From the IMG/VR virus record IMGVR_UViG_3300042888_002988, positions 128,001 through 192,000 of that record: 64,000 bases of DNA. The stretch is one strand, 5' to 3'. The notes under the pieces were generated by a model that made no database searches, was not told the origin of the DNA, and saw nothing but the letters and a program-made list of their open reading frames with translations. Position numbers and translations under genes: made by a program. Each line of letters opens with the position of its first letter. Position 1 is the first letter of the stretch. The DNA comes from a virus (lineage: Duplodnaviria; Caudoviricetes). Shown in pieces: positions 31,137-34,601 of the stretch.

Positions 31137-33113
31137 TCACCCGCCCACGTAGCCGCCATCGAACATGTCGCCCATCCGGGTGCCAAGGTCGTTGGGGATC
31201 GCGATGCCAAACATGGTCCGCAGCTCGTCCATGATCTGCTTGTTCGGGATCAGCGGCTCCTGGTTCACGATGCGCTTCATCATGCAGGCGTAGTTGGTGG
31301 CCATCAGGAAGTCATCCGCCCGAGCCCCGTGCTTGATGTAGCGCATGATCGTCCGGCCCGAGGGCGCCTCGGTGATGTTCCGGCGGACGTTCAAGCAGTC
31401 CAGAGCAAACGAGCTGGAGTCATCCCACCGCGGCCAGGTGATCATCCCGTCCTTGATGTCGGCCAGCACGGCTGAGATCGAGTCCGACCGGTGAAGCGAC
31501 ATGATGTTCGACTCCGGGTGTGGAATGCGATCGAGCATCAGCTTGGTGTCGGTGTATTGGAAGTGGATCAGCATGTTTGTGGGGATCGCGCCGCAGTCCC
31601 GCATGAAGGCATTGTAGTAAGCGCCTCCGCCGTTGTCGGTGCCCATGGCGAACGACTTGAACCGGTTGTGGGCGGCCACGATGGTCTGAGCGACATCGCG
31701 GTAATTCATCCCAGCGTAGCGGTGAGCGTAGAGCAGGTCCATCCGACCCTCAGGAGTCATCCCGTAGATCACGTGCACCGTGTAGGAGAGCTTCGACCGG
31801 TAGGCCGGCTCCCAGTCAGAACCTCCCCAGTCGACGCCGGAGAACACCCTGGTGTAGCGCACGGTCTCCTCGAAGTAATCCGACTGGGTCTTCTTGAAGG
31901 TCTTGTCGGTGCAGCACTTCTTCAGATCCGCCTCGCTGAGCTCGGTCATCCCGGACTCCACCGCGATTCCCCAGATTTCCTGGAGGAACTTTTTGAACTG
32001 ACCATTCTGGGTATACCGTTGGTAATACTGCCAGATGTCCATGAAGCGCTTGCCCTGCGCATACTCCGGCACGATCACCTGCGGAAGGTGGAAGCTCGGC
32101 ATGTTGACGTTGAGCCTTGATCGATCCTCGTGGACGAACTCGCCGGCCATCGGGTTGAGCTTGATATGCTTGTTGTCCGGGCAGCGCAGGCCTTCCGGTG
32201 AGACCATCATGTTCGGAATGATTTCCGGATCCCCCAGGGAGTGGAACTTCTTCGGGCAGGAACAGGGGATGTGCCATACGCCACGGCTGCCTAGCCGATA
32301 CTGTGCTTCGAGGCAGGTATCGAGGTCCTTGGAGGTGCCGGCGAAGATGGTGAGCCGGTCGTCGGGGAAGGCTTTCTGGACCTGCTCGATCTCAGGTAAA
32401 TGCTCGGCATCGAAATCCTGCGCTTCGTCTATCAGGACTGATGGAACCGAGTTGCCCCGAATTTTACTGGGGTCAGTTAGAATGTGCATTAACTTCAGAG
32501 AACCGCCGGACGGTGCCTCTTTGTAATACATGTTATTGCGGTAGCCGCGGCTCGCAAAGTAGGACGGAGGACATACTGATCCGCGCTGCATGTCGAGCAT
32601 TTTATCAGCGATCGTCTTGCTCTGCTCCTTGAGCGGAGTCAGGTAAATCGCGCGGTAGTTCGGGAACACGCAGAACTTGAGAAGCTCCGCTCCGCACAGC
32701 CCAGTCGAATTATGACTGGCGATCCCGGACGTGAAATACGTGTGCTCTTTGGAATCCACCCGCAGATCGAACAGCTCGCGCAGTTCCCCCAGGGGCTCGC
32801 AGCTGGTGACCATCTGCCAATCGTGCTCAGTCAATACCCAGTCACCCACCAGGATCTGATCCACCTGCGTGAAGCCACTCGTCCCGTTCACCAAATGCTT
32901 GCCGGCGCACTCCAGCGTGAATTCACGCGTCTGGAGTCGCCATACCGGCATGGGAATAGTGCGATAGGCATGTGTGACTTTTACAAAACCACCCCCAGGA
33001 GCGGCGACTTTTATGTCAAGATGCTCCAAGGATCGTTCCTCAGCTATTTCGTTTTCCAGCAGCACGGAGTCCACCGTAAGCCGCGAACGGAGCAGCGTCA
33101 AGATGATGACCAC
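31137..33113 (-). CDS. terL: Terminase large subunit C-terminal half preceded by split-intein IntC (~135 aa)
   Basis: Intein blocks CAGKHLV, LFDLRV..EHTYFTSG, IASHN/S (junction 32709/32708); then STG, Walker B VLIDEAQD, nuclease GVDWGG and DDFLMA. Confidence 0.92.
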   Translation of the reverse strand: MVIILTLLRSRLTVDSVLLENEIAEERSLEHLDIKVAAPGGGFVKVTHAYRTIPMPVWRLQTREFTLECAGKHLVNGTSGFTQVDQILVGDWVLTEHDWQMVTSCEPLGELRELFDLRVDSKEHTYFTSGIASHNSTGLCGAELLKFCVFPNYRAIYLTPLKEQSKTIADKMLDMQRGSVCPPSYFASRGYRNNMYYKEAPSGGSLKLMHILTDPSKIRGNSVPSVLIDEAQDFDAEHLPEIEQVQKAFPDDRLTIFAGTSKDLDTCLEAQYRLGSRGVWHIPCSCPKKFHSLGDPEIIPNMMVSPEGLRCPDNKHIKLNPMAGEFVHEDRSRLNVNMPSFHLPQVIVPEYAQGKRFMDIWQYYQRYTQNGQFKKFLQEIWGIAVESGMTELSEADLKKCCTDKTFKKTQSDYFEETVRYTRVFSGVDWGGSDWEPAYRSKLSYTVHVIYGMTPEGRMDLLYAHRYAGMNYRDVAQTIVAAHNRFKSFAMGTDNGGGAYYNAFMRDCGAIPTNMLIHFQYTDTKLMLDRIPHPESNIMSLHRSDSISAVLADIKDGMITWPRWDDSSSFALDCLNVRRNITEAPSGRTIMRYIKHGARADDFLMATNYACMMKRIVNQEPLIPNKQIMDELRTMFGIAIPNDLGTRMGDMFDGGYVGG

Positions 33114-33304
33114 GCAAGCAGATGCGGCGTGGTGTCACTTATAAAGCGCAGGAAGAACGGCTCGCGCTGGAGCGACCGTGCGCACCAATCCCCATTACGG
33201 ACGAAGGGGGCGCCGCATGTTTCCATAGGCTTGCAGCCTACTCATGCCGTGTTATTGTCGTCCTCAGCCACACATTGAACGCTACCCAACCACTACCCAC
33301 ACAC

Positions 33305-34189
33305 ATGCAATGGGCTCCTCGCCCAGCTCCCTACCTGCCCGGGCTTCACAGCGCCCAGGCGACGAACAGCAACGAGCGGATACCGTTCGTCTCTGTGTAT
33401 CGCACCAAAGCCAAGGCCGCAGCGGATTGGATCCGTGGCTGCAAGCTTGCCACCGGCACATCCTCGTTCTTCCTGCGCAGCGACGAGCAGGACGTGAAGC
33501 TCTACGATTACCGCGGCAGGTTCGTGAAGAACCTGGAGGCACCCACGTTCAAGGCCACGCCGGAGCTCGAAGACAGCATCCCAGTGGATCGCGATTTCAT
33601 GGTGCATGAGGCGCGGGAGGCCACCAAGCAGCCTCAGCTGTCGCTGCTCGTCTGCGCGGAAGACCACGCCGGCGCCAGCGCTGCCGACCATTCGAACTTC
33701 GTCATTGTCTGCAGGCGCATGCTCATCGAGGCCTCCGCCGCGGACCTGGAGCATTTCTATGTAGTGGAGAGCCAGCGCTGGCCGTGCCGCATGACGGGCA
33801 TCTACGCAAACGTCTCCGCGCTGTCGCCGGCCATGCAGGACATCTACCTGGAGCGATTCAAGTGGCTCAGCAACAGCTGGCCGCTGAATGCCCGGCACCA
33901 CCTGGACATGCTGGCCGACCGGCTGGTGCGATCCAGGTCGCGCTACGTGACCGACCTACTGCAGGACTGCGGACACGCCGCCCGTATGCCGCAGGACCTG
34001 ATTCTGACCCTGCAGTCGAAGTGGATGCTGGCGTCGCCGGGATCCAAGTATCGGTTCGCGCAGCACTTGGTGGAGACGCTCCGGGAAGGTCTGCTGTTCG
34101 AAATCAACCAGGCTGAGGTGTTCGCGCCGTCCATCGTGGACAGCCACGGGGCGGCGGTCGTCAAGGAATTCAGGCAAATCCTGCGCTGA
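33305..34189 (+). CDS. Hypothetical protein inserted antisense between the terL halves
   Basis: 294 aa from the Met after an ACACAC leader (frame open from 33122); no motif recognised. Confidence 0.7.
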   Translation: MQWAPRPAPYLPGLHSAQATNSNERIPFVSVYRTKAKAAADWIRGCKLATGTSSFFLRSDEQDVKLYDYRGRFVKNLEAPTFKATPELEDSIPVDRDFMVHEAREATKQPQLSLLVCAEDHAGASAADHSNFVIVCRRMLIEASAADLEHFYVVESQRWPCRMTGIYANVSALSPAMQDIYLERFKWLSNSWPLNARHHLDMLADRLVRSRSRYVTDLLQDCGHAARMPQDLILTLQSKWMLASPGSKYRFAQHLVETLREGLLFEINQAEVFAPSIVDSHGAAVVKEFRQILR

Positions 34190-34601
34190 CCGGCAGTCCC
34201 TGATCGAAAATTGCGCGCAGAGTCACACGTCCGTGATTGGTCTCCACGGGCGTGTCGCCGTCGGCGCACTTGCCCACCTGCCGGCCCGCTTTCAGGGTGA
34301 TCACACTGCCCGGGGTCATGGCTGTCATGGCGAACATGAAGGGGCGGGAGCTGAAATCCAGTGGTGTGTCGAACGGATACCTGGGGAAGAACCTGGGGAT
34401 CAGCAGACCGAAGTTGAAACCGCACAGCGGCAGCAAAGCACCCTCGGCATCCATGATGTCCTGGCGAGTGGCCTTGCCATTTGAGTAGTCCGCTGATACT
34501 GTGTCGATGCGCTTCATGGCGGCGGTGACCAACGCCGCCTGCTGGGGGTCCTTCCTCAGCTCGCTGATGAGGTCATAAACAAATTTACCTTGTGCCGCCA
34601 T
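34170..34601 (-). CDS. terL: Terminase large subunit N-terminal half ending in split-intein IntN (32 aa)
   Basis: Walker A KAGRQVGK immediately followed by CADGDTPVETNHGRVTLRAIFD (intein block A, Cys1 at 34268-34266) and then a stop. Confidence 0.9.
   Translation of the reverse strand: MAAQGKFVYDLISELRKDPQQAALVTAAMKRIDTVSADYSNGKATRQDIMDAEGALLPLCGFNFGLLIPRFFPRYPFDTPLDFSSRPFMFAMTAMTPGSVITLKAGRQVGKCADGDTPVETNHGRVTLRAIFDQGLPVSAGFA

Follow-up and report, generated by a model that had tools for sequence, protein, structure and literature searches.

Described split inteins and the terminase locus

Terminases are a common intein host (PMC4760082), and two split inteins of large terminases, AceL-TerL and GOS-TerL, have been characterised as tools (PMC11766414). 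In natural atypical split inteins the N-terminal fragment (IntN) measures 15-37 amino acids (aa). AceL-TerL and GOS-TerL are divided at the S2 site, after the first helix; VidaL and PolB16 are divided at the earlier S1 site, in VidaL after strand beta2 with an IntN of 16 aa (PMC13014065). A terminase fractured at this early point is also known already from 2009, when Dassa et al. included among their "fractured genes" a terminase locus whose 122-aa C-terminal intein fragment (IntC) misses only motif N1 (PMC2677866). The present analysis concerns a locus of this kind in a 64,000-nucleotide (nt) stretch of a caudoviricete genome (positions 128,001 to 192,000 of the virus record IMGVR_UViG_3300042888_002988), hereafter the window. 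Its gene for the large terminase subunit (TerL) is broken within the Walker A motif, and the single large terminase is very probably made as two polypeptides that are rejoined by protein trans-splicing.

With AceL-TerL and GOS-TerL the intein of the window shares a large-terminase host protein, a short IntN paired with a long IntC, the S2 split and a mini-intein build without an endonuclease domain. IntN and IntC measure 32 and 119 aa here, against 25 and 104 aa in AceL-TerL and 37 and 115 aa in GOS-TerL (PMC11766414). The host proteins differ, being T4 gp17-like in the two characterised systems and a GpA-like terminase here. The nucleophile pairs differ as well: Cys1/Ser+1 in the window, Cys1/Cys+1 in AceL-TerL and Ser1/Cys+1 in GOS-TerL. 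Because the +1 residue is Cys in both of these and Ser here, allelic identity with them is doubtful (PMC11766414).

In layout the locus resembles the fractured terminase of 2009: both halves lie in one locus, a free-standing gene lies between them and the unusual early split is the same. In the fractured genes of that study, however, the intervening genes encode GIY-YIG or Vsr-like homing endonucleases, run on the same strand and supply the downstream start with their 3' ends (PMC2677866). The intervening gene of the window lies on the opposite strand, so that it is no same-strand endonuclease gene giving a downstream start. It belongs to no known family, and the C-half has an upstream module of its own. 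New at this locus are three things: an orphan gene that lies antisense in the endonuclease slot and is stably inherited, a conserved promoter-like module and the Cys1/Ser+1 pair; the intein itself will not surprise a specialist.

A terminase gene in two halves

The N gene (34170-34601) and the C gene (31137-33065) are separate open reading frames (ORFs) on the minus strand. They keep their original order and orientation within one locus, with the pieces of the split intein at the break. The preliminary description of the window had recognised a TerL fractured at Walker A by an atypically split intein, and this is borne out by the ORFs, the family profile and the invariant catalytic residues. 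It had placed the halves ~1.06 kb apart; the separation stands, while the measured gap from N-gene stop to C-gene start is 1,104 nt (33066-34169). The spacer is wholly filled by the intervening antisense gene, which that account did not mention. Coordinates are collected in Table 1.

Table 1. Features of the fractured terminase locus (positions in the window)
Feature	Position	Strand	Description
TerL N-extein	34269..34601	-	111 aa, ends KAGRQVGK, the first half of Walker A
IntN and stop codon	34170..34268	-	32 aa, CADGDTPVETNHGRVTLRAIFDQGLPVSAGFA; block A with Cys1 and the first helix
Middle gene, 294 aa	33305..34189	+	fills the fracture; maximal ORF 33122-34189; likely start 33305
Divergent intergenic region	33066..33304	.	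hairpin, -35-like and -10-like elements (minus strand)
Hairpin	33110-33132	-	part of the upstream module
-35-like TTGACG	33096-33101	-	follows the hairpin
-10-like TACGGT	33073-33078	-	ends 7 nt before the GTG start
IntC	32709..33065	-	119 aa with the GTG initiator counted; blocks B, F and G; ends GIASHN
TerL C-extein	31137..32708	-	523 aa and stop; begins with Ser+1 (STGLCGAELLK...), completes Walker A as GRQVGK-S

The N gene encodes 143 aa, which agrees with the earlier reading of its 3' end: the N-extein is followed by C-ADGDTPVETNHGRVTLRAIFDQGLPVSAGFA (32 aa) and a stop codon. Cys112 of the protein, which is Cys1 of the intein, comes directly after GRQVGK. The N fragment is 60-65% identical to the N fragments of the related loci L001 and L002, and the N-extein is colinear with residues 14-121 of L020, an unsplit relative (E 2e-18). 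In all clade members the junction GK/C (the slash marks the splice point) is followed by a stop codon 29-37 aa further on, inside the range reported for natural atypical inteins, and GK/C stands in every IntN found. A profile of N fragments had no match in the PDB because IntN is too short. In L006 (33% TerL identity) no N fragment was found within 4 kb upstream.

The reading frame of the C gene is open between 33113 and 31137. The GTG at 33063-33065 is its start since the C proteins of relatives all begin, with M or V, at the position of VLLENEIAEERS. This settles the start codon, which the preliminary description had left to be determined, and it shortens IntC from the ~135 aa given there. 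The C protein has 642 aa, with the IntC ending in GIASHN/STGLCGAELLK followed by the C-extein. The 32-aa IntN and the 119-aa IntC lie on separate polypeptides, as in other atypically split inteins.

The terminase identity of the C fragment is indicated by matches to phrog_2 (terminase large subunit, 2.8e-10), to annotated phage large terminases in a tblastn search (3e-19) and, weakly, to Terminase_6N. When the exteins are joined, the sequence GRQVGK-S corresponds to TGRQVEKTS and TGRQVSKTT of P0086 and P0088, two distant unsplit relatives which carry PF05876 (GpA ATPase domain). Among 5.8 billion proteins searched there are 89 relatives, which are mostly 630-650 aa long and built as IntC plus extein. 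Single-sequence searches gave nothing in Pfam for either fragment or the middle ORF, and nothing in PHROGs for the N fragment or the middle ORF. Gene callers label such halves "hypothetical protein".

The source genome is a 200,158-bp viral record, complete according to CheckV. Lake and freshwater metagenomes are its source, and runs of at least six studies contain it. The locus has the same layout in at least 15 independent contigs. Contigs of two further studies cross the locus with no indels: X3 spans 31601-34328 with 0 differences, and X6 spans 31233-34724 with 70 substitutions and no gaps. Since the layout recurs in independent contigs and assemblies, an assembly artefact was ruled out. 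The complete 200-kb genome contains no second terminase-like locus and no second copy of either half. That the halves are the remnant of a decayed terminase, with packaging left to another enzyme, is hardly credible: many genomes conserve the two exteins as well as the two intein pieces, and the CheckV-complete genome has no other terminase-like gene to take over. An essential single-copy packaging motor would then depend on trans-splicing throughout a clade of large phages from fresh water in which terminase identity falls as low as 41%.

Intein homology and the case for trans-splicing

An alignment of 30 IntC family members, reaching down to 22% identity, shows invariant residues at block B His57, at block F Asp100 and throughout the terminal Ser-His-Asn, which contains His118 and Asn119. 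The +1 position is always Ser or Thr (Ser in this phage, S or T in its relatives). Within the TxxH of block B only the His is invariant, and the Thr position varies across the family. Divergence is almost as slow in IntC as in the extein (mean pairwise identity 53% vs 59%, Spearman correlation 0.81).

Comparison with known inteins, proposed in the preliminary description as a check, gave significant similarity at the level of the family profile and not at the level of single sequences. Pfam Intein_splicing (PF14890) is matched by 19 of the 30 IntC family members. Searched against the PDB, the IntC family profile matched VidaL (3.6e-18), gp41-1 (5.9e-12), CatC (1.2e-9) and Spl DnaX (3e-9), with few other matches. 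The likeness to Cat (PDB 6DSL), the AceL/GOS-TerL consensus intein, is thus seen at profile level only, and VidaL (PDB 6VGV) is closer. VidaL, the best solved match to the IntC family, is itself naturally atypically split and has a short IntN. Its split nevertheless lies ~10-16 residues earlier, the alignment beginning at VidaL residue 36 and at position 11 of the IntC profile. CatC aligns in register (profile positions 12-116 to chain positions 12-111), and therefore the split here falls at S2, after the first helix. The whole intein comes to ~150 aa, and neither fragment has an endonuclease domain, as had been noted from the ORFs.

Structure prediction also pairs the two intein pieces. The IntN-IntC complex reached a score of 0.70, against 0.00 for the best of 3 controls, and so passed a mark that is reached by 51 of 78 solved complexes and by 2 of 108 mismatched pairs. 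At least 83% of contacts recur between runs, and the predicted local distance difference test (pLDDT) value of the partner is 66. The prediction supports docking of IntN with IntC; the chemistry is beyond its reach, and since split inteins have solved complexes the pass may partly reflect likeness to these.

In the proposed mechanism the 143-aa N fragment (N-extein with IntN) and the 642-aa C fragment (IntC with C-extein) would be made separately. IntN would contribute block A with Cys1 and the first helix, and would dock into the incomplete HINT fold of IntC. The assembled class-1 mini-intein would then carry out an N-S acyl shift at Cys1, transesterification to Ser+1, Asn cyclisation and an O-N shift. 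The product would be a 634-aa terminase with an intact P-loop, GRQVGK-S, recognisable by the junction peptide QVGKSTGLCGAELLK; the unspliced fragments have predicted sizes of 16 kDa and 72 kDa.

The halves could also assemble non-covalently, with the intein pieces acting as a docking module only and the terminase working as two chains. The complex prediction fits this equally, showing docking and not chemistry. A precedent is Aeh1 NrdA, which was split by a mobile endonuclease and is reported to assemble via domains derived from mobile elements (PMC3045599). However, the residues needed for catalysis only (Cys1, the block B His, the block F Asp, the His-Asn pair and Ser/Thr at +1) are invariant over deep divergence. 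In addition, an unspliced P-loop would hold a 150-aa insert between the Lys and the Ser of GK-S. Non-covalent assembly is improbable because selection for docking alone would not keep the chemistry residues invariant.

Rejoining at the level of nucleic acids, whether by RNA splicing, RNA trans-splicing or a programmed DNA rearrangement, would also yield a single polypeptide, but there is very little probability of this. An Rfam search of 28000-36000 for intron families, at E up to 1, gave no match, and the spacer is occupied by a conserved gene that codes for protein on the opposite strand. No joined form of the halves occurs in three DNA runs and one metatranscriptome, where contigs only were searched and rare variants would escape. 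Complete intein motifs, moreover, flank the break exactly. The RNA-level mechanism that the preliminary description had named as the outcome that would overturn it was thus not found in these searches. An RNA run, X18, yielded short contigs with 90-99% likeness over parts of the locus; they are a relative's, may include DNA and are no evidence of expression.

Trans-splicing of separately expressed halves would call for a promoter of the C-half, as the preliminary description had argued, and this gains support from the region upstream of the GTG. Eight diverged loci have a module in common: a hairpin, TTGAC(G/A), 16-19 nt, a TAnnnT-like hexamer, 5-12 nt and the start codon. The hexamer is present in most of the eight; L005 has TTTACT in place of TTGAC(G/A) and no clear TAnnnT-like hexamer. 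The hairpin stems show compensatory changes (CCACGC/GCGTGG, CCCCGC/GCGGGG, CCCTCGC/GCGAGGG, TCTCGC/GCGAGA and others). The conserved module suggests a separate C-half promoter that would give a nearly leaderless mRNA. A generic scan of the spacer for sigma-70 promoters and terminators found no site, and the only k-mer common to the upstream regions of both halves was a chance 9-mer overlapping a start codon.

The 13-mer TTGACGCTGCTCC of the module has just two occurrences in the 200-kb genome. The other copy (47997-48009, minus strand) lies in a 440-nt intergenic region, 47609-48050, which is full of CACCAACACCAAT-like repeats. This region may serve as an origin or in regulation, or a non-coding transcript may begin there.

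Several points weigh against trans-splicing from two separately expressed genes. The IntC of the window taken alone has no significant match in Pfam or the PDB (best PDB E 0.6, to VidaL and Spl DnaX). In its translation the Thr of block B is replaced by Ala (AGKH). The -10 element of the candidate promoter is weak, and the generic scan missed the module. Leaderless mRNAs with a GTG start are efficiently translated in some hosts only. A Cys1 and Ser+1 pair needs transfer from a thioester to an oxyester, which is common in inteins. The pair departs from both characterised TerL split inteins (PMC11766414). Finally, the case is sequence- and prediction-based throughout, and splicing is inferred from it.

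As a resource, the clade would provide a family of natural S2-split inteins with a Cys1/Ser+1 pair and an IntN of 29-37 aa from mesophilic lakes, and these are possible orthogonal labelling tools.

The antisense gene, related loci and the neighbourhood

The start of the middle gene at 33305 is based on an ESM Atlas entry that begins there and on the contig of P0001, which has a 294-aa gene at this place. Its homologues (23-70% identity) occupy the same place in the same orientation in relatives. In every longer contig examined, including those with members at 23-24% identity, the gene lies antisense between IntN and IntC, and the spacer measures 1,011-1,117 nt across eight loci. Among 1.8 billion representatives, 50 clusters (at 50% identity) of middle-gene homologues were found; narrower middle-gene alignments used in locus searches found few loci. 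Divergence of the middle protein tracks that of the terminase (Spearman correlation 0.80, the pairs not being independent). This parallel, and the presence of the gene in all clade members examined, speak for vertical inheritance. Among the loci compared, the antisense orphan gene is specific to this clade.

The AlphaFold2 model of the middle protein has a pLDDT of 95.2 and a predicted template modelling score (pTM) of 0.92. The predicted architecture consists of two beta-rich alpha/beta subdomains followed by a helical bundle. The protein family has a conserved motif, E-x-H-A-G-A-S-A-A-D-H-S-N, and Asn131 is the sole fully invariant residue in 40 sequences. A 40-member profile matched nothing in the PDB or Pfam. 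Fold searches with the whole model and with the N-terminal 165 aa alone (Foldseek against the PDB, AFDB clusters and BFVD; a wide VIA-align search; the ESM Atlas) gave no match above Z 5.8 or a TM score of 0.37, and such null results are not proof of a new fold. ADP-ribosyltransferase-like and YopX-like pieces recurred as weak fold matches and were distrusted. A role as small terminase was dropped, as the predicted architecture is unlike one and nothing speaks in its favour.

A scan of IMG/VR with the terminase alignment gave 79 loci. In dozens of these a ...SHN/ST junction lies 105-140 aa after an upstream stop codon, as expected of a long-IntC split, in both GpA-like and T4-like terminases. 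The preliminary description had called this split type rare, which holds for characterised inteins only; in viral metagenomes the type is widespread, with dozens of IMG/VR contigs.

The loci related to the window fall into different states. In the contiguous state (L020/24, L041, L050, L058 and others) the intein is unbroken. L020 and L024 (36-37% TerL identity) have the N-extein, a ~166-aa intein and the C-extein in one ORF, colinear with both fragments of the window. Their inteins and that of Salmonella phage Det7 are inserted like the split one, between the Lys and the Ser/Thr of GK[ST], and end likewise in ...SHN/[ST]T. Unlike the split intein they are part of one polypeptide and would splice in cis, and in L020 a loop of ~50 aa covers the region where the intein of the window is cut. 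In a second state, with a gap of 1.0-1.5 kb (L030, L033-35, L042-44, L064, L067-69, L074, L078, L079), the ORF in the gap lies on the same strand, encodes 354-471 aa, extends into the start of the C gene and has DUF559/MTES_1575 and zinc-finger matches. This same-strand gene corresponds to the Vsr-like homing endonuclease of Dassa et al. (PMC2677866), and the sister clades represented by L030, L033, L044, L064, L074 and L078 fit the 2009 model. In a third state (L053/54, L063/65, L090) no gene intervenes and the halves adjoin one another.

Det7 is a cultured Kuttervirus (L007 = NC_027119.1, 1363-3573). The contiguous ~159-aa mini-intein-like insert in Walker A of its TerL has the boundaries ARQSGK/CVRGDT...FLSHN/TT, and the record annotates a plain terminase large subunit and no intein. 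An unannotated Walker A intein is thus present even in a cultured phage, while the halves of split terminases go under "hypothetical protein".

L063/L065 (3768-3860 and 3838 onward) have adjacent halves of the same atypically split intein type in a different P-loop protein, unlike the terminases here. The junction reads IGENGAGK/C ... SHN/STILDALTFG. Six terminase relatives (P0021, P0029, P0062, P0076, P0063, P0067) have a second intein, at Walker B (DE/C...HN/CQDF). It is contiguous in some of them and in others typically split, with a short IntC; relatives of the latter kind would assemble their terminase from three polypeptides.

These states suggest a possible order of events. The fracture likely began when the gene of a free-standing Vsr-like homing endonuclease invaded a contiguous Walker A intein, a state that sister clades would still show. 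In the clade of the window the endonuclease slot would later have been taken by the unrelated, conserved antisense gene, and the C-half would have acquired its own hairpin-plus-promoter module. The clade in which this old fracture is fixed consists of freshwater phages of roughly 80-200 kb. Since sister lineages keep the proposed earlier and later stages (contiguous, fractured by a Vsr-like endonuclease, and with adjacent halves without a gene), they offer a natural series on which the Dassa model of split-intein origin could be tested, with one branch in which a different, stable gene sits in the endonuclease slot.

Alternatively, the middle gene may itself encode a mobility factor, such as an active homing endonuclease from a new family, that is still spreading the fracture, which would make the locus a live selfish element. 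It occupies the exact slot of the Vsr-like homing endonuclease genes of the sister clades, its fold is unrecognised, so that a nuclease is possible, and two homologues with non-terminase flanks (L099, L100) could mean mobility. Such activity is nevertheless unlikely. Contrary to the Dassa model, the gene runs on the opposite strand and gives no start codon to the downstream half, and an hhalign comparison with the DUF559 endonucleases of the sister clades found no similarity. Its presence in every clade member examined and its parallel divergence with the terminase indicate vertical and not sporadic inheritance. A single invariant residue, Asn131, is also few for a catalytic site, and the 100-nt terminal inverted repeat of L100 suggests a chimeric contig.

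Both of these homologues are on short contigs. L099 (1-1729; 70% identity) has AT-rich flanks with other ORFs, and L100 (1-1664; 54% identity) has a DnaB-like ORF as well as the terminal inverted repeat. They reflect either gene mobility or assembly chimeras, and L100 may be chimeric.

A further reading gives the antisense gene a function beyond that of a passenger. It would be a new intein-associated gene that either founds a homing-endonuclease or mobility family not yet recognised or encodes a domesticated factor. Through its position and a separate near-leaderless promoter of the C-half, the phage would control when the active motor is assembled, a gate on packaging time of the kind that the preliminary description had put forward as a possible effect of trans-splicing, and the fracture would be kept by selection and not by the difficulty of repair. 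This is conceivable but doubtful.

Both terminase pieces are antisense islands that run against all neighbouring plus-strand genes. The ATG of the N gene shares CATG (34599-34602) with the ATG of a conserved plus-strand ORF of 63 aa (34600-34791), and the 3' ends of the N gene and the middle gene overlap by 20 nt (34170-34189). The stop codon of the C gene abuts the end of a plus-strand ORF (30933-31136). Just upstream of the terminase locus (29068-29958) lie a tmRNA (Rfam, 127 bits) and two tRNAs, one a tRNA-Met (CAT) and the other with an enlarged anticodon loop. On the other side the locus adjoins genes for an SbcD/Mre11-like metallophosphatase (35924-37312) and an SbcC/Rad50-like protein (SMC_N, AAA_23; 37888-40407), and the synteny of these two with the terminase locus is conserved in L001, L002, L004 and L005. 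The ORF at 35316-36143 has a weak RNase H match (E 0.03).

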